From NCBI GenBank assembly GCA_000092065.1, contig CP000591.1: a stretch of 64,000 nucleotides of DNA; one strand, written 5' to 3'. This document shows positions 1 to 60,900 of this stretch, in pieces; the stretch's first letter is position 1, and the number at the start of each line of letters is the position of its first letter. The DNA comes from Ostreococcus lucimarinus (lineage: Eukaryota). Made by a program: the position numbers and the translations under genes. The notes beneath the pieces are model-generated. The model did no database searches. It saw only the letters and a program-made list of their open reading frames with translations, and was not told the origin of the DNA.

Positions 1-214
1 ACCGTTCCATGTCGTTCATCAAATCCTCTCCATCGCTCTCGTCGTCGCTCCCGCGCGAGTCCTCGCTCGCGTCGCCGTCGCTCGCCCCGACGTCGTCGCG
101 CTGATCGTGATGCGGCACGAACGGATCGTCCGCGCCCGCGCGCTCGAACGCGTCCCGCGCGTCGTCGTACGCGTCCGAGGCGTCGTCGCGGTCATCGCTA
201 TCGCTCGTCGCCAT
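1..214 (-). CDS. 5' end of an acidic Asp/Ser-rich protein gene running off the left edge (partial)
   Basis: An ATG at 214-212 (minus strand) opens a stop-free frame to position 1: MATSDSDDRDDASDAYDDARDAFERAGADDPFVPHHDQRDD... It is absent from the ORF track because it has no stop in the window. The sequence is low-complexity and I recognise no family. Confidence 0.3.
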   Translation of the reverse strand, partial: MATSDSDDRDDASDAYDDARDAFERAGADDPFVPHHDQRDDVGASDGDASEDSRGSDDESDGEDLMNDMER

Positions 215-454
215 CGCGGCGCGCGCGCGTCGTCGCGTCGCGTCGCGTCGCGCGTCGTCGAGTGTCGCGCGCGCGTTTGAATTCGCATCACAGCTCGACG
301 CGCGCGCGACGCGCCGGCGACGCGCCTTCGGCGAGCGCGCGCGCGGCGAGCGCGAGCGAGCGACGTCGCGCGCGCGCGCGCCGCGCGAGGACGAAACCGC
401 GCGCGAGGACGACGAGGCGCGCGATCGCGGATCGCGAATCGCGACGCGCGGGCG

Positions 455-15277: not shown

Positions 15278-17095
15278 TTAATTCGGGTCGTCGTCGTCGG
15301 CGGAGGGCGGTGATTCGGCGCGCGCGAGCTCGATGGCGTCCATGTCTTCGCTGACTCGGCGCAGGGCGGCGCGCATGCGCTCGGCGTAGGAGACGCCGGA
15401 ATCGTCGTCGGCGGCGTCGTCGTCGGCGGCGTCGTCGGCGGCGAAATCGTTCACGGCGAGCAAGACCTCGTCCACGGCGGTGGATTCGTCGATGTCTTTC
15501 ACGCGCTTGACCTTTCGAACGACGTCTTGGAATAAGACGTTGACGTCGCGCGATATCGATGGGTCGCGCCGCATGGCGTCGACGACGTCGCGACCCATGC
15601 GTCGCTTTTTCCTCGCCAACATGTTTTTAAACGCGGCGGCTTGCGCCCTGCGAACGGTGTCCGGATCGGGCGGGCCGGCGCCGCGCGCGGGCGCGGCGTC
15701 GCCGAGCGCGCGCTCGATGAAACGCGTCATCGTGTTCCGTTGATGGATGATGTACATGGCGTCCGCGACGTAGCCGCCGACGATCGGGGCGAACACGCCT
15801 CCGGTGACGACGAAGGCGAGCGATTGCGAGACGAAGAGCAATCGACTGCGGCTGCCGTCCAAAAAATCTTTCACGCTCTTTCCGCGCAGGATGTTTTCGA
15901 ACGCGCGCGTCTCCGCGACGTTCGGCGCTTCGTTTGCGGACAGCGGCGACGACGACTCGTCGTCCGCGGCGGCGTCGGGCTTCTTCTCCCAAAACTTGAG
16001 CGACGGTTTCTTCGTCTTTTCGGCGCTCGCCTTGATGTCGTCCTCGCTCACCGGCACCAACTTTTGTTTGCCCGTCACCTTGTTCCGCTCCACTCTGAAC
16101 GCCTGCACGCGCGTTTGTCTCTGCACGCGTCGCAAACGCGCCTCGAGGACGAGGTACACGCCGAACGCCGCCGCCGCCTTGGCCGGGGCGTCGACTTCGT
16201 ACGGCTCGAACCCCGCCTCGACGGCGCGGTCGGCGAGCCACTTGGCGAGCAAACCCAAAACCACTCCGCGCTCGAGCATCTCGTCCGCGACTCGCGCGGT
16301 GAGCGCGACGGACGCGTCCATCCAAAACGGCATGCTTCTGCACGGATTATTCAGCGTCTCCTCTTCCTGATACCTCGACAGCGGCTCAAAGTACCGCTCG
16401 AGCGCCGACGCCTCGCGAACCTCCCCCGACGCCTCCTCGCGCGCCTCGTTCGTCGCCTCCGCGCGCGCGGTCCAATCGACCCCCATCACCAACGCGTCGT
16501 AAATCGCCGTCGGCGCCGCGAACGCCAATCCGATCGACGCCGCGCGCGCGAAATCCATCGCCTCGCCCCCCGTCCCGGCGCCGAAATCGCCAAACGCGCT
16601 CGCGCCCGCGGCGTACGCCAAGCACACCGCCAGCGTCCCTTTCACCCCTCCCACGGCCACCAACAGCGACAGATACTCTCGCATCATCGCCTTCTCCGGC
16701 GTTTCCGACGACGACGCGTCCGCGCCGTCGGCATCCGATTCGCGCGGCGTCTCGCCGCGTCCCGACGCCGCCGTCGAATCCCCGCGCGCGCGCGTCGTCG
16801 ACCTTCGCGCCGCCGACGCCCGGTCCATCGCCTCGGTCGCGCCCGCGCTCGACGCGCGCGCGTCCTCGTCGCCCTCCGTCGCGTCGTCGTCGTCCAGCGA
16901 CTCGCCGAGGACGCTGCGCAGCGCGTCGAACGTCCCGCTCGGCGACGCCGACGCGAGCGACTCGTCCTCGTCGTCCTCGCGCGTCGCGCGCGCGCGCCGG
17001 TTCGCGACGCCGCGCGCGCGGCGCGCTCGACGCCGGCGCGCGCTCGGGCGTCGCGCGAGCGCGCGCGCGGGCGCGCGCGTCGCGCGCGGCGCCAT
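15278..17095 (-). CDS. hypothetical multi-pass membrane protein with presequence-like N-terminus
   Basis: In-frame ATG at 17095 of ORF 15278..18004; the upstream part of that ORF is antisense to the neighbouring gene. There are several hydrophobic helices (LSLLVAVGGVKGTLAVCLAYAAGA, LLFVSQSLAFVVTGGVFAPIVGGYV). DEMLERG weakly resembles the CPBP EExxxR motif, but I do not assign it to that family. Confidence 0.5.
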   Translation of the reverse strand: MAPRATRAPARALARRPSARRRRARRARGVANRRARATREDDEDESLASASPSGTFDALRSVLGESLDDDDATEGDEDARASSAGATEAMDRASAARRSTTRARGDSTAASGRGETPRESDADGADASSSETPEKAMMREYLSLLVAVGGVKGTLAVCLAYAAGASAFGDFGAGTGGEAMDFARAASIGLAFAAPTAIYDALVMGVDWTARAEATNEAREEASGEVREASALERYFEPLSRYQEEETLNNPCRSMPFWMDASVALTARVADEMLERGVVLGLLAKWLADRAVEAGFEPYEVDAPAKAAAAFGVYLVLEARLRRVQRQTRVQAFRVERNKVTGKQKLVPVSEDDIKASAEKTKKPSLKFWEKKPDAAADDESSSPLSANEAPNVAETRAFENILRGKSVKDFLDGSRSRLLFVSQSLAFVVTGGVFAPIVGGYVADAMYIIHQRNTMTRFIERALGDAAPARGAGPPDPDTVRRAQAAAFKNMLARKKRRMGRDVVDAMRRDPSISRDVNVLFQDVVRKVKRVKDIDESTAVDEVLLAVNDFAADDAADDDAADDDSGVSYAERMRAALRRVSEDMDAIELARAESPPSADDDDPN

Positions 17096-50277: not shown

Positions 50278-50396
50278 GACGGCGGAAAGACGCGCGGCGC
50301 GGCGTTGTGAGGGCTCTATCCACTCGGCGAGCGGGACGACGAAGCCGAGCGTCGTCGCTCGATTGAAAATAAGCTATGGGCTACCGCTCCGACGCG

Positions 50397-51761
50397 TCAG
50401 TGTTTTGGTTTAGTGTTGCGGCGTGACGCTCGACGTGTCGTCGTCTGCGTCGTCGCTTCGCCGACTTGCGCGTGTGACTTATCGCCGCCGTGCAGGAACT
50501 CCTCGAGGACGCTTTCCTTCGGCGGACATGTCGGCGCGTTGTTGACGGCGACGCGTTCGCCCTTGGGCAAACGCTCGGCGAGTTGGCCGAGGGTGAGACC
50601 TATCAATTCCTTCGGCACCGTCTGTGAGGGCGCGCCCAGGTTCGCCGCGCTGCGCATGATGTCGTAACCTAAATGTTCGAAATCGCCGCCGTAGAACGTG
50701 TTGAAGAGATTCAAAAGCTCCGGATCAAAGCGCGACCAGCACGAGTGCAAGTCGGGCTTGGGGACATCCTTGTGCCACGCGTTCGTCACGACCATTTCGA
50801 TCTTTTTGTGATATCGATGGTGAATGAAACTAATGATGTTTTCCTCCTTTACGGACGCGCCCCCATGTCGTTTAGACCACGGCGTCAGCGGACACTCGCC
50901 TTCCTCCGCGCCGAAGCACTCTTCGATTCGAAAAAGATTTTCGGCGCGCGACGCCATGAGCATCTGCGGCGCCCAGTGAGACAACGAGGCGACGCCTCCG
51001 TTTATTTCATCCTCGCACTTCTTCTGCGCTCTCAACTCCCATCCACCCGCTTCGTAGCACGCTCGAATTTTTGAATCGTGCACGTTGAGCGTCAGGTGCG
51101 CGGCGAACTTTTCGCAATTCCCCTCGTCGTACCCAACCTTCAGGCTGTCGAACAACTTTCTATCGTACGTCCCGGTCCAGTACAAAAACTCTGACTCCGC
51201 GCGTTCGTACGGATTCCTCACGATCGCCCACGACTTTCGCACGTAATCCTTCGGAATCGAGTGCCAATTTTCCCAGCCGCGGTACCTCGGGTGCAGCTCG
51301 TACGCGCGATCCTCGCGCTTGATGCAGTACCCTTCCGCGATCCCCGACACCCCGAGCGAGGTCTCGATCGTCGTCCCGCCCGTCTTCGGGATGTGCAAAA
51401 ATATCGGAAATCCGTGGCCGGATCGTTTGTCGCCGATCGAGCGCCGCACGTCCAGCGCGCGCGCCTTTTCCGCGTCGGTGTACCCGAGGCGCGCGCGCGT
51501 CGCCGCGGCGTCGCTCGCGTCGCCCGATCGTCCCGCGATCGCGATCGCCACGCTCGCGGCGCCGAGCAGCGCGATGGCGGCGGCGCCAGCGGCGACGCGC
51601 GACCGGGACGGCGACGGTGACGGCGCGAAGCGCGAGCGAACGTCGTCGTCGCGACGGGTGTTGACGCCGATCGCGTCGACGTCGACGACGATGGCGTCGT
51701 CCGCGAGCGCGCGCGGGGGCGAGAACGCGGAGATGAGGCGCTCGCGTTCGTTGAGCGTCAT
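50397..51761 (-). CDS. type-II membrane sulfotransferase-like protein
   Basis: N-terminal TM: AAGAAAIALLGAASVAIAIA. IFLHIPKTGGTTIE matches the PAPS 5'-phosphosulfate-binding motif of Golgi carbohydrate sulfotransferases (for example HS6ST FLHIQKTGGTTF). Confidence 0.6.
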   Translation of the reverse strand: MTLNERERLISAFSPPRALADDAIVVDVDAIGVNTRRDDDVRSRFAPSPSPSRSRVAAGAAAIALLGAASVAIAIAGRSGDASDAAATRARLGYTDAEKARALDVRRSIGDKRSGHGFPIFLHIPKTGGTTIETSLGVSGIAEGYCIKREDRAYELHPRYRGWENWHSIPKDYVRKSWAIVRNPYERAESEFLYWTGTYDRKLFDSLKVGYDEGNCEKFAAHLTLNVHDSKIRACYEAGGWELRAQKKCEDEINGGVASLSHWAPQMLMASRAENLFRIEECFGAEEGECPLTPWSKRHGGASVKEENIISFIHHRYHKKIEMVVTNAWHKDVPKPDLHSCWSRFDPELLNLFNTFYGGDFEHLGYDIMRSAANLGAPSQTVPKELIGLTLGQLAERLPKGERVAVNNAPTCPPKESVLEEFLHGGDKSHAQVGEATTQTTTRRASRRNTKPKH

Positions 51762-53633: not shown

Positions 53634-55930
53634 TCAACGTCTTCTAGATCGCTTACGACGCCTGTCCCTGGAGCGCGAGCGCGAGGACGATGAACTATGC
53701 GAGCTCGATCCACTGGATGAACTCGACGAACTACGCGACCCGGAGGTCGAACTCGACGAACTGGAGCTCGAGCTCGACGAACTGGAGCTTGAACTCGACG
53801 AACTCGACGAGCTCCTAGAGCGCTTCGGCACCGTCTTGGGAGCTGTTTTCAACCACTCACGCATGTCCTCAGTAAGCGCACCAAGAGAGATGGAGGTGAA
53901 AAAGTTGATGCTAAACCGCGTGTTGCGAGGCTCGTCCTTGGGCATGATGCCTTGGAAGTACTCACGCATTTCAGGATTTTGCATCTTTTCGTTGAGCTGC
54001 TTCAAACCGAGCGCCTCTGCGAGTTCTTGGAACAGAATCTTGATAAAAATTCGTGAACTTGACGTCGTAGCTTCCTCGGTGAGTTGGATGTATGCCAGAC
54101 ACGTCCACGACATGGCGTCGGTGGCGAGTAAGTGCGCAAAGAATTTTGCCACGTTGCGAAGCTTGTTTGTCTCCAAACGGTGAATCGTACTGTACTGCTT
54201 CATGAAAACTTCGTCGAACAGTTGCGGGTAGATTTTGTGGATGAAACAAAACCGTTGCGCGAGCAAACCGTAGTACCGCAAGTAGGTGCGCTCCTGCGAC
54301 GCACATTCAACGAGCATCGTGCACAACTCTACTTCGGCGCCCGGCGGAATGTTGAGCTTCATCAATTTATGCCCAGCTTCTTCGAAATCTAACGAAGACA
54401 TGATGGTGAGATAAATCGTCCTTCGGAGGTTTACGAGATTTGTCTCCGTGAGATCCGCGATTTCGACCTTGCCATCGCCTCGGCTCGCCACAATGGCGCC
54501 CGCGCCCTCGTCGTCGCTCGACGAAGAACTCGACGACGAACCACTGTCGCTGTCGCTGTCGCTATCGCTCGAGCTCGAGCTCGATTCACCGAGAATTTCC
54601 TTGCGAATGTCTGCATATCGACGCTCGTTTTCCTCAAACTCGGGATCTTCTTTGAACACATCCAAACCAGGCTGCGCTTGCATCTCGTCGTCCAAGCCGA
54701 TTTCGTGCACGATTTGGTCGTCCTCGTCGACCAAATCTAGCTCGGGAGAGACCCCCTTTTTCCCCTCGAATCCACCTTTTCGAAACGCGAACAACCCTTC
54801 GATCATAAACTGAACGCGCTTGTCGATCTCACCTTCGTGTAAAATTCCTCTAAATCGCTCAAAGATGCCGTGCAAACCTTGCGGCGTGAGCTCTTGGAGC
54901 GTGAAGCCGCACTCCTTGACAAAATCAATCGCAACCTCTACGCTGTCGTCCGTGGGAGTGCCTAGCAACACAGTCAATAACTCTAGTGCTATCAACTCGT
55001 GAATGATCTGTCGAGAAAAAAGGTAAACGGTCAATCACCCGCGCTGGAGAAGCGCCCCGTCGCGTCGGCGACCGCGTCGGCGGCGGCGTGACATCAGTGT
55101 TAAAAAGCTCGATATGATTTTGATCCTCACGGGAATCAGTGAGTGTTGCGTGATCATAATTCATCCTCTGTCACATCGCGCGCACCGCGTCGCATCGCGT
55201 CGTCCATCGAGCATCGTACCTGTTGATTAATCAGCGCCGCCAAAAACCTCGTCGCCGCCACGCACACCGGCTTATCGTTCCTCTTATACGCCCGTCTAAA
55301 CTGCAAAACGCATCTCTTCGCGATCAACTCGCCGATTTCAGGAAACTTCGTGTTCACCACCGCCACCAGCGCGGCGAACACACCACTAAACTGCGGCGAC
55401 GCCATCTGAGACTTCATCACGCTCCTCGCGAACAATCCCCGCCCGCGTATCAAATTCTCCTGAAACAGCTCCGGCACCACGTGTTGCACGTTCGACGCGT
55501 TCACCTTATTCACCAATCCATTGATCGATTTCTTCAGCGCGTCCCACGACATGCGTTGATACTCGACGCTCGTCTTATCGTTCGTCTCGCGCATCATCTG
55601 CGCCAGCTTGAACGGCGGCACGTACGCGCCCCCCGTCCTCGTCCCTCTCGCCGCCGTCCCGCGGCTCGCGCTCGGCGCCGTCGCCGTCGCCCTCGCGCGC
55701 GCGTCCGCATCGTTCGCGTCCGGCGCGATCTCTCCTCGTTCGAGCGTCGCGCCGTCGTCGCCGTCGGCGTTCGCGCCGTCCGAGGATCGCCGCCGCCGCG
55801 CGCGATTCGTCGTCGCCTCGCCGCGCGCCGCGTCGCCGCGCGTCGCGCGCGGCGAGCCGTCGCGGCGCGCGTCGCCGTCGCCGTCGTCGTCGTCGCGACC
55901 GCGCGAGCGCGAGCGGCTTCGCGTGCGCAT
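53634..55930 (-). CDS. CWC22: pre-mRNA splicing factor CWC22 (2 exons: 55930..55220 and 55007..53634)
   Basis: MIF4G: YVPPFKLAQMM...FAALVAVVNTKFPEIGELI...RFLAALINQQ | IIHELIALELLTVLLGTPTDDSVEVAIDFVKECG. MA3: NLRRTIYLTIMSSLDFEEAGHKLMKL. The protein is colinear with human CWC22 across the splice junction, and both exons are frame-checked against the ORF track. Confidence 0.9.
55008..55219 (-). other. CWC22 intron (212 nt, phase 0)
   Basis: Donor CAG|GTACGATG. The 3' end is GATTGACCGTTTACCTTTTTTCTCGACAG|ATC. The intron is required to join INQQ to IIHELIALE as in orthologues. Confidence 0.85.
55088..55174 (-). ncRNA. box C/D snoRNA candidate (intron-encoded, 87 nt), 18S rRNA guide
   Basis: The minus strand reads GUGACAG-AGGAUGA-...-CUGA(D')-...-CGAGCUUUUUAAC-A-CUGA(D)-UGUCAC. 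It has a 6-bp terminal stem (GUGACA/UGUCAC) and a 13-nt perfect complement to 18S GUUAAAAAGCUCG adjacent to box D. Confidence 0.55.
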
Positions 55931-57907: not shown

Positions 57908-60900
57908 ATGCCCGGCGCGCGCGACGGCGGCGCCGAGGCCGCGGCGCGGTACCGACAGTACGAGTACAAGGCGGTGCGTGACGACGACGACGCGCGCGCG
58001 CGACGACCGACCGACGCGACGCGCGCGACGACCGCGCGACGACCGAGGGCGCGGCGATCGAGGACGGCGGCGGCGGGCGAACGAATGCGCGACGAAATCG
58101 ACGTCGCCGAGCGCGGACGCGGCGATGAAACGCGCGGTGACCGAAGCGAACGCGCGCGATGTAAACGCGGCGCGACGCGCGAGCGCGGACTGACGAAGAG
58201 GCACGCGCGCGCGACAGAACGCGTCGTTGGTGCTGGAGAGCGATCGACGCGGGCGACCGCGGGGCGAACCCACGGGCGCGCCGGAGTCGCTCGAGGGAAA
58301 GATCGACGCGTCGCGGTTCGGAGATCGAGCGCGAGGCGGGACGGACGGTGATTTCGCGGAAAAACGGGAGCGAGCGGCGAGACGAAGGGCGGAAAAACGA
58401 GCGAGAGGGGACGCGGGGGAGGCGGAGGCGTTCGGGAAGCGCGGCCGAGCGACGAAGGGGGCGAGCGTTCTGGGAGGGAGTGAGTATGGGTTGTATAAAC
58501 CGAAGACGCGGGAAACGCGGGCGGCGTACGAGGGGTTGTTGAGCGTGTTGCAGGGAGTGTTCGGAGATCAACCGCAGGACGTCATGCGCGGCGCGGCGGA
58601 TGAGGTTTTGGCGGCGCTGAAGGAGGAGGGGAAGACGGAACGCGCGAAACAAAAGGACGTCGAGGCGTTGATGGGGACTTTAACTTCGGAGAGATTCGCG
58701 CAAATTACCGCCATCGGGAAGCTGATCACGGATTTCTCTATTCCAGGTGAAGGTGGCGAAGGCGCGGGCGAGGAGTTGGACGACGACATCGGCGTCGCCG
58801 TGGAGTTTGAAGAGGAAGAAGAGGAAGACTCGGACGTGGACGAGGTGTTAGAGGCGTCCGACGTAGACGACGACGACGAAGGCGACGAAGGCGCGTACGA
58901 CGGCGCCGTGGGCGCGAGAGCAGTCGAGGATGAGTACACGCCGAACGCGGACCACGGGTTGAATCCGGCGGACATCGACGCGCACTGGTTGCAGCGCGCC
59001 ATCTCGAAAGCGTTCGGGTTTACGGACTCTGACGCCGCGGAGAGCTTGAAGCTGTCCGAAGACGTATATCAGGTGTTGTCCACCGAAGATGACCGCGAGT
59101 GCGAAAATGCGCTCGTGTCAATGCTCGATTACGACAAGTTTGATTTGATCAAAGTGCTGTTGAAGAACCGACTCAAGGTGTTTTGGTGCACAAGACTCGC
59201 TCGATCCGCGAGCGAGGAAGAAACCGCGAACATCGAGGCGCAAATGAAAGCCGATCCGGCCGCTGCTGGGATTTTAGCGTCCATGCGCGCGACGCGCGCG
59301 TCCGCACGCGATCGACAGACGGCGACGGAGCAAAAGATTCGCGAAGAGGCTCGCAAGCTTCGCGGCGAAGTCGCGGAGATGCGAACTCAAGGCGGCGCCG
59401 CTGCGGCTGGACGTCAGCTTTTGGAGCTCGACGCGCTTGCCTTCGTGCAAGGTTCGCATTTTATGAGCAACAAGCGATGCGAGCTTCCGCCCGGTTCGTT
59501 TAGAAGCGCCAAAAAGGGTTACGAAGAAGTACACATACCGGCGCTCAAACAGCCACCGTTCAACGACGACGAAGCGCTCCGTGCGATTGAAGAAATGCCA
59601 GAGTGGGCGCAACCTGCGTTTGAGGGCATGAAGACGTTGAATCGCATTCAGAGTCGCGTGTACGAATGCGCATTGCTTTCGCCAGAGAACATGCTTCTCT
59701 GCGCGCCGACGGGCGCGGGTAAGACGAACTGTGCGATGTTGACTATTTTACATGAAGTTGGTCTTCACCGTCGTCGTGACGGGAGCGTCGATACGTCTGC
59801 GTTTAAGATCGTGTATGTTGCGCCGATGAAAGCTCTCGTCGCAGAAATTGTGGGCAACTTGAGTAATCGTTTGAAGACCTTTGGGATCCAAGTGCGAGAA
59901 TTGACGGGCGACGTTTCGCTGAGTAAGGCTGAAATTGAAGCCACGCAAATCATCGTTACCACGCCAGAAAAATGGGATATTATCACTCGAAAGTCTGGTG
60001 ATCGCGTGTACACGCAGCTCGTCAAGCTTATCATCATCGATGAAGTCCATCTCTTGCACGACGACCGCGGTCCCGTGCTCGAATCCATCATCGCGAGAAC
60101 GGTGCGACAAGTTGAGACGACGCAAGAAATGGTCCGTTTAGTCGGTCTTTCTGCAACGCTGCCAAACTTCGAGGACGTTGCGACGTTTATGCGAGTAAAC
60201 CCTGAGAAGGGGTTGCACGTTTTTGACAACTCGTACCGCCCGTGTCCTTTGCAGCAGCAATACATCGGCGTCACGGTGAAGAAGCCGTTGCAGCGAATGC
60301 AACTCATGAATGAAATTTGCTACGAAAAGGTGATGGAAAGTGCGGGCAAGAGTCAAGTACTCGTATTCGTACACAGTCGTAAGGATACGGCGAAAACCGC
60401 GAAAGCTCTTAGAGATTTGGCGATGGAGAACGAGACTCTAGGAAAGTTGATGCGTGACGATTCGGCGAGTCGTGAAATTTTACTCACCGAAGCCGAGACG
60501 GTGAAGAGCTCCGAGCTGCGTGATTTGCTCCCGTACGGGTTCGCCATACACCACGCCGGTATGAGTCGCGCTGATCGTACATTAGTAGAGGAGCTCTTCG
60601 GCGACGGTCACGTGCAAGTGCTCGTCTCCACGGCGACGCTCGCGTGGGGGGTCAACCTGCCCGCGCACACCGTGATCATCAAGGGCACGCAAGTGTACAA
60701 CCCCGAAAAGGGTGGTTGGGACGAGCTTAGTTTCCAAGACGTCATGCAAATGATGGGTCGTGCGGGTCGGCCGCAGTTTGACACGTTCGGCGAAGGTATC
60801 ATCATCACGCAACACTCCGAGTTGCAGTACTACCTGTCGCTGTTCAACCAACAGCTCCCCATCGAATCTCAATTCGTCAAGCAGCTCGCCGACGCTTTGA

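Follow-up and report, generated by a model that had tools for sequence, protein, structure and literature searches.

The window analysed here is a 64,000-nucleotide (nt) stretch of Ostreococcus lucimarinus contig CP000591.1 (assembly GCA_000092065.1), and our subject is an 87-nt box C/D small nucleolar RNA (snoRNA), very probably of the U36/SNORD36 family, that lies on the minus strand within the intron of a CWC22 gene. Joining the two exons across this 212-nt intron yields one uninterrupted frame of 694 amino acids, in which Pfam recognizes a MIF4G domain (residues 134-314) and an MA3 domain (residues 431-536); the homologues of this protein in databases carry the name CWC22. A first-pass annotation of the window, made from the letters alone, had named the host CWC22, and both the domains and the names of the homologues uphold that choice, with the snoRNA on the coding strand. 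Within the intron, 45 nt separate the 5' splice site from the element and 80 nt separate the element from the 3' splice site; it is in the sense orientation of its host. Hirose and Steitz reportedly described, in 2001, an optimum distance between snoRNA and 3' splice site for mammalian intronic C/D snoRNAs, and the 80 nt found here is similar. The parts of the locus are as follows.

55930..55220, minus strand: CWC22 exon 1, codons 1-237
55219..55008, minus strand: host intron, 212 nt, GT..AG; joining the exons restores a single open reading frame
55007..53634, minus strand: CWC22 exon 2, codon 238 to stop
55088..55174, minus strand: complete box C/D snoRNA, 87 nt, very probably a U36/SNORD36-family small-subunit (SSU) guide and Ot-CDsno3 orthologue (from sequence, Rfam and comparison with Ostreococcus tauri)
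55174-55169, minus strand: 5' half of the terminal stem, GUGACA, pairing with UGUCAC at 55093..55088
55168, minus strand: unpaired G
55167-55161, minus strand: box C, AGGAUGA, with G at position 2 against the consensus RUGAUGA; column shared with the orthologues
55160-55140, minus strand: D' antisense region, 21 nt, AUUAUGAUCACGCAACACUCA, 21/21 identical in O. tauri
55139-55136, minus strand: box D', CUGA (from sequence; same in O. tauri)
55135-55131, minus strand: D'-C' loop, 5 nt
55130-55124, minus strand: box C', GUGAGGA, 5 nt 3' of D' (from sequence; matched to the C' part of the SNORD36 model)
55123-55112, minus strand: spacer, 12 nt
55111-55099, minus strand: D antisense element, CGAGCUUUUUAAC, complement of 18S 601-613, predicted to select A604
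55098, minus strand: unpaired A
55097-55094, minus strand: box D, CUGA, invariant in all three orthologues (this element, O. tauri and Bathycoccus)
55093-55088, minus strand: 3' half of the terminal stem, UGUCAC (minimum-free-energy fold and three-way alignment)

Read along the minus strand from 55174 to 55088, the letters are GUGACAG AGGAUGA AUUAUGAUCACGCAACACUCA CUGA UUCCC GUGAGGA UCAAAAUCAUAU CGAGCUUUUUAAC A CUGA UGUCAC. Structural marks of the box C/D class are present, namely a box C with one deviation (position 2), a box D and a 6-bp stem formed by GUGACA and UGUCAC, which the minimum-free-energy fold contains. Also present is the internal C'/D' motif, made up of CUGA and GUGAGGA with 5 nt between them and kept in O. 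tauri. The element forms an AT-rich island of 41% GC, and the 45-nt and 80-nt intron flanks have 67% and 68% GC. Boxes C, D' and D, the 6-bp terminal stem and the AT-rich island in the 212-nt intron had all been proposed in the first-pass annotation and could be reproduced from the minus-strand letters; its list of boxes was sound as far as it went, having overlooked the C' box at 55130..55124.

The CWC22 protein (53634-55930, minus strand) has long Ser/Arg-rich and Ser/Asp low-complexity tracts at its N terminus, in its middle and at its C terminus, one of them a poly-Ser stretch over 20 residues long. Local GC and repeat signals may be inflated by these tracts.

Family assignment and the 18S target

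The Rfam search, a check that the first-pass annotation had proposed, returned the SNORD36 covariance model (RF00049) at 55165..55089, with 36.6 bits, above its gathering score of 30. SNORD36 is the sole Rfam family to reach its gathering score anywhere in the window. The E-value of this match, 0.033, refers to 128 kb (both strands) times 4227 families and corresponds to roughly 1e-5 for SNORD36 alone. In the Rfam alignment the C box falls 7 nt downstream of AGGAUGA, on UUAUGAU, a motif not kept in Bathycoccus. Since NGAUGA beside the stem is conserved in two orthologues, the parse with AGGAUGA as box C is better than the placement by Rfam. The 13-mer CGAGCUUUUUAAC that forms the D guide has a single occurrence in the window; chance would give about 0.10 matches, and this even if one mismatch were tolerated.

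Because the window has no ribosomal RNA (rRNA), we took ribosomal DNA (rDNA) from Mamiellales metagenome contigs, using as search pattern the reverse complement of the PRAS02 probe. Five of the rDNA loci so obtained have the Ostreococcus OSTREO01 signature (L016, L031, L032, L038 and L046), and the bounds of 18S, 5.8S and 25S on L032 were drawn with Rfam. The sequences used for the BATHY01 and MICRO01 probes had no match in any rDNA locus fetched.

An anchored scan of L032 pairs the D guide with Ostreococcus 18S 601-613 (GUUAAAAAGCUCG) over 13 contiguous Watson-Crick pairs. The duplex ends 1 nt before box D, and A604, with which the A5 run begins, faces the fifth guide position; the runner-up among the anchored D-guide matches on L032 rDNA has 10 bp, one G-U included. 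Thus the 13-nt antisense match to 18S and the box-D+5 geometry pointing to the first A of the A5 run, which had been read from the intron, hold on the 18S of Ostreococcus itself. As for the wider 18S segment given with that reading, the complement of the 13-mer stands, and the letters beyond it do not: ...GUAGUUGG had been given and Ostreococcus reads ...GCUCGUAGUCGG, a difference that falls outside the duplex.

The adenosine so selected is the SSU adenosine expected of a SNORD36-class guide, the counterpart of A668 in human, A619 in yeast and A621 in Arabidopsis. The same 18S site is Am619, guided by snR47, in yeast, Am668, guided by U36, in human and Am621, guided by AtU36, in Arabidopsis, and this methylation is as old as the last common ancestor of eukaryotes (LECA) (Hoeppner and Poole, PMC3511168; Diesend et al., PMC8817022). 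Indeed, the Rfam match, the A604 geometry on Ostreococcus 18S and the site equivalence in the literature all agree with the U36/snR47 class that the first-pass annotation had named.

Orthologues in Ostreococcus tauri and Bathycoccus prasinos

The object is already known from a close relative, where an RNA in a MIF4-like host gene was published with expression data in 2020. This is Ot-CDsno3 of Ostreococcus tauri (Bouchouicha et al. 2020, NAR Genom Bioinform; PMC7671301 supplement), a C/D-class snoRNA of 87 nt, encoded in an intron of ostta01g03570, which is annotated as 'MIF4-like, RNA metabolism'. It was detected experimentally as a stable, abundant, uncapped RNA at a mean of 1817 transcripts per million, its predicted targets are 18S.A604 and 25S.G1828, and SNORD36 and At-U36 are listed as its orthologues (PMC7671301); the O. 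tauri catalogue mentions neither RiboMeth-seq nor primer extension. By analogy with this RNA, the O. lucimarinus element may likewise accumulate as a stable, abundant, uncapped RNA of 87 nt. Box C/D snoRNAs in general exist as stable RNAs in complex with Snu13, Nop56, Nop58 and fibrillarin.

Over 87 nt, three substitutions and three 1-nt indels distinguish our element from Ot-CDsno3, so that the window comes from a close relative of O. tauri, a different species or strain. The two are the same in their D' region, in boxes D', C' and D, in the terminal stem and in the predicted 18S.A604 target, and the host gene family agrees, 'MIF4-like' there and CWC22 with MIF4G and MA3 domains here. By contrast, box C is canonical in O. 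tauri (AUGAUGA) and AGGAUGA here, and the remaining changes lie in the D'-C' loop and in the spacer before the D guide. The D guide itself differs solely in the length of a T run, which has four T in the printed sequence CTTTTAAC and five here. Since the listed coordinates of Ot-CDsno3 span 88 nt while 87 letters are printed, and since Ostreococcus 18S has five A, the missing T was probably dropped in print. The host gene family and the near identity of the sequences both agree with orthology, and the comparison of the letters suggests that the element is the orthologue of Ot-CDsno3. The first-pass annotation had found it notable that an rRNA guide sits in the gene of a splicing factor, a point that loses its force in the light of the O. 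tauri catalogue, in which 72/131 snoRNAs are intronic and RNA-processing genes make up 18% of the hosts (PMC7671301).

Conservation in the CWC22 introns of related algae had been put forward as a further check, and here Bathycoccus prasinos bears it out. On OZ116997.1 (L002), the CWC22 gene is interrupted behind the same codon (..NQQ|gt) by an intron of 360 nt, which at 4849-4957 of L002 carries a 109-nt orthologue with the layout AAAGGCA stem, A, box C ACGAUGA ... AAACGAGCUUUUUAACC CUGA UGCCUUU. Besides the CWC22 codon, it shares with our element the D guide (a 14-bp duplex), box D, an NGAUGA box C and a terminal stem in register; it differs in its length, its D' region, a degenerate D' box (CCGA) and changed stem pairs. 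In the box C column, AGGAUGA here stands beside AUGAUGA in O. tauri and ACGAUGA in Bathycoccus, so that NGAUGA is conserved, and the C' column reads GUGAGGA here and in O. tauri and GUGACGA in Bathycoccus. Importantly, the terminal stem is 100% paired across the three orthologues even though 3/7 pairs are altered on both sides, that is, by compensatory change. The Bathycoccus copy has no annotation in the gene table of OZ116997.1, and Rfam at E <= 1 found no SNORD36 in the CWC22 loci of four relatives, Bathycoccus included; the copy in Bathycoccus was found solely through a motif search and a reading of the intron. A scan of viral contigs for more orthologues found none.

The D' region of the Bathycoccus copy (..ACAAAAUCCAACU, adjoining CCGA) forms 10 contiguous bp with 18S AGUUGGAUUU, three nt 3' of the D duplex, a pairing matched by only 0.4% of shuffles. 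This region may select the 18S G 15 nt 3' of the A site by way of the degenerate CCGA, or it may be an accessory pairing; this G corresponds to human Gm683. Immediately 3' of the U36 target, Ostreococcus 18S (L016, L031, L032, L038, L046) reads GCUCGUAGUCGGAUUUUGG and that of other Mamiellales GUAGUUGGAUUUCGG. The resulting U-to-C change in Ostreococcus falls within the stretch paired by the Bathycoccus D' region, and it may be related to the differing D' region of Ostreococcus.

The D' region and its candidate targets

The first-pass annotation had recognized no target for the D' guide. Our searches end at the same point, as no convincing target was found in the 18S, 5.8S and 25S of Ostreococcus or in the spacers of L032. 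With D' taken either as CUGA or as the upstream CUCA, no anchored duplex of at least 9 bp forms with Ostreococcus 18S, 5.8S or 25S. An unanchored ungapped scan together with RNAduplex on Ostreococcus rRNAs gave at best 8-9 bp including G-U pairs, and the external and internal transcribed spacers (ETS and ITS) on the sense strand of L032 added nothing. The stretch for which complementary RNAs are at issue is AUGAUCACGCAACACUCA; a metagenome search with a guessed 25S context for a D' target, TGTTGCGTGATCAT...CAGGTCTCCAAGG, gave no match.

The target published for the D' guide of Ot-CDsno3, 25S.G1828, looks unsound. We calibrated the 25S numbering of PMC7671301 with the snoRNA Ot-CDsno52, whose A2063 and G2079 are 2073 and 2089 in our numbering, an offset of +10 that makes the published G1828 our G1838, within UGAGGGUUG. 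Read by hand, the pairing at this site is a duplex of 4 + 4 bp in which an A:G mismatch falls on the nucleotide that would be methylated, and for this reason we rejected it. Nor does the D' region supply the large-subunit (LSU) guide expected of SNORD36, the equivalent of human A3703 and yeast A2218/2220, as it has no complementarity to the corresponding 25S ...GAAGAAAUUC.... This LSU site is assigned in O. tauri to a separate snoRNA, Ot-CDsno52 (PMC7671301). Arabidopsis too has its LSU guide on another snoRNA than its SSU guide (AtU36 versus AtU36a, PMC3511168), so the lack of an LSU guide here is compatible with membership of the family.

The D' region is 21/21 identical to that of O. tauri, and about 4/19 positions of the spacer and loop have changed. 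At the spacer rate, zero changes in D' have a rough P of about 0.007 by our own estimate from a small sample, and this identity between two Ostreococcus sequences hints at constraint within the limits of that sample. Such constraint need not imply a guide, as inactive C'/D' motifs are often highly conserved (Van Nues et al., PMC3116282). The intact C'/D' motif most likely serves the architecture of the small nucleolar ribonucleoprotein (snoRNP) or a weak accessory pairing, and not a second methylation of rRNA. That the D' region is instead a functional guide for a non-ribosomal RNA (small nuclear RNA, tRNA or mRNA), with this U36 homologue then dual-purpose in a way specific to Ostreococcus, strikes us as improbable.

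Two observations concern a neighbouring gene. BRR2/SNRNP200 extends from about 58350 to beyond 64000 on the plus strand, its open frame exceeding 1880 codons and running off the end of the window. It is divergent from CWC22 at a distance of 2.4 kb, and in Bathycoccus (L002) BRR2 is within 4 kb of CWC22. Given this proximity in Bathycoccus too, the two spliceosome genes are syntenic neighbours. Fourteen nt of the D' region (AUCACGCAACACUC, 55141-55154, minus strand) are identical in sense to BRR2 coding sequence at 60804-60817 (plus strand), and 17/18 nt agree when one mismatch is allowed. The match covers the codons I-T-Q-H-S in GEGIIITQHSELQ, with a chance expectation of about 0.003-0.01 in the window. 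Because it is sense to sense, it provides no pairing of snoRNA and mRNA. The same BRR2 site reads ATCACACAACACTC in one relative (L053) and ATCACCCAGCACAG in another (L054), with synonymous drift (ACG to ACA or ACC, among others), and in view of this drift we set the match aside as probably a coincidence. Sub-threshold Rfam matches at 192-333 (minus strand) and at 15394-15451, 50332-50466 and 59122-59180 (plus strand), to the families MIR3454, MIR4374, sR45 and snoMe28S-Cm3227, are all far under their gathering scores and were likewise set aside as chance; the one at 59122-59180 falls within the BRR2 coding sequence.

The preferred reading, its rivals and known relatives

We conclude that the element is an intron-encoded U36/SNORD36-family box C/D snoRNA and the orthologue of O. 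tauri Ot-CDsno3, a reading to which we give a probability of about 0.93. Its architecture, its family, the complementarity of guide and target, its conservation with a compensatory stem and its sense orientation are direct observations. Several points weigh against this conclusion. The fold energy of the element is no better than that of shuffled sequences (z = -0.54). C/D snoRNAs usually have a fold energy at shuffle level, their structure being mostly protein-induced, so that this value neither supports nor refutes the call. Box C is off consensus at position 2, with G where O. tauri has U, a deviation that could lower stability, and the D' guide has no convincing target in the Ostreococcus rDNA searched. 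Moreover, the location of the snoRNA is not deeply conserved. In seven relatives (L001, L003, L004 and L049-L052), environmental or metagenome-assembled contigs whose CWC22 is 69-82% identical to the one here in tblastn alignments, the frame runs uninterrupted through the host codon with no intron. None of these seven contigs contains the D-guide motif, so a U36-type guide in these Mamiellales-like lineages must lie elsewhere. The CWC22 intron and its snoRNA are therefore common to Ostreococcus and Bathycoccus and not to the seven other lineages. The locations of intronic snoRNAs are known to drift (PMC3511168), and the distribution of the CWC22 intron fits this documented mobility, or 'constrained drift'.

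The rivals concern chiefly what the D' half of the molecule does. Were the snoRNA a true double guide, D' would also direct 2'-O-methylation, either at 25S G1828, the site predicted by snoScan for Ot-CDsno3, or on another RNA (small nuclear RNA, tRNA or mRNA). The well-formed and conserved boxes D' (CUGA) and C' (GUGAGGA), the 21/21 identity with O. tauri next to the changes in spacer and loop, with its rough P from a small sample, and the listing of 25S.G1828 in PMC7671301 all speak for it. Yet the G1828 duplex breaks at the nucleotide to be modified, no anchored duplex of at least 9 bp was found in Ostreococcus 18S, 5.8S, 25S, ETS or ITS, and the D' region of the Bathycoccus orthologue differs, and we regard double guiding as rather unlikely. 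D' might instead be an accessory ('extra base-pairing') element that sits beside the A604 duplex and boosts methylation there. In yeast, such pairings of 4-11 bp have been reported, with snR47 named among the cases and with the second guide region of one-guide snoRNAs as a possible source (PMC3116282). GCAACA (RNA nt 26-31) does complement 18S 594-599 (UGUUGC), one nt 5' of the D-guide duplex, and the 10-bp pairing of the Bathycoccus D' region is equalled by just 0.4% of shuffles. However, the 6-bp GCAACA match is not significant, since 23% of shuffled D' regions equal it, and it cannot account for all 21 conserved nt, which leaves an accessory role in Ostreococcus a doubtful proposition.

Two further alternatives would set the snoRNA itself in question. 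One is that the copy is decaying or poorly expressed: the change of U to G in box C (AGGAUGA here, canonical AUGAUGA in O. tauri) would weaken the kink-turn and the RNA would no longer accumulate. But the guide is intact, as are boxes D, D' and C' and the terminal stem; in Bathycoccus the box C position in question is C and the whole element is kept, which argues that this position varies in the lineage; and a search of the window found no second U36-type guide there. Decay is accordingly a very unlikely fate for this copy. A chance resemblance in an AT-rich patch of the intron, for which nothing speaks beyond the shortness of the motifs, is effectively refuted by the Rfam score above gathering, the uniqueness of the 13-mer in the window, the compensatory stem in Bathycoccus and the detection of the RNA in O. 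tauri.

If the U36/SNORD36 reading is right, the snoRNA would be co-transcribed within the CWC22 pre-mRNA, and splicing followed by debranching would release the intron. Exonucleases would then trim it to the ends that the snoRNP protects, which the terminal stem of 6 bp and the C/D kink-turn determine. Pairing of the 13-nt element upstream of box D with 18S 601-613 would follow in the nucleolus, and fibrillarin bound at box D would 2'-O-methylate A604, opposite the fifth guide position. Processing, snoRNP assembly and methylation in O. lucimarinus would presumably follow this course.

For a family as old as LECA, above the Rfam threshold and with an O. tauri counterpart published in 2020, the biological addition is small. 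The case does show that a reading of sequence alone can recognize a real snoRNA together with its target. Its by-products are the distribution of the intron among Mamiellales, a published D' target that is doubtful, and a Bathycoccus orthologue missed by Rfam that may act, as a guide or as an accessory, on another 18S site close by.

Compared with the established members of clan CL00051, human SNORD36/U36 (RF00049), Arabidopsis AtU36 and yeast snR47 (RF01203), the O. lucimarinus element has the same box C/D architecture, with a D guide aimed at the same universally conserved 18S adenosine (Am668 in human, Am621 in Arabidopsis and Am619 in yeast). Human U36 and yeast snR47 have an extra D' guide for an LSU site (Am3703 and Am2218, respectively), whereas our element is without such a guide, and the host genes of U36, AtU36 and snR47 differ from CWC22. 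In this respect it resembles the Arabidopsis system, in which AtU36 and AtU36a split the SSU and LSU guides, as do Ot-CDsno3 and Ot-CDsno52 in O. tauri.

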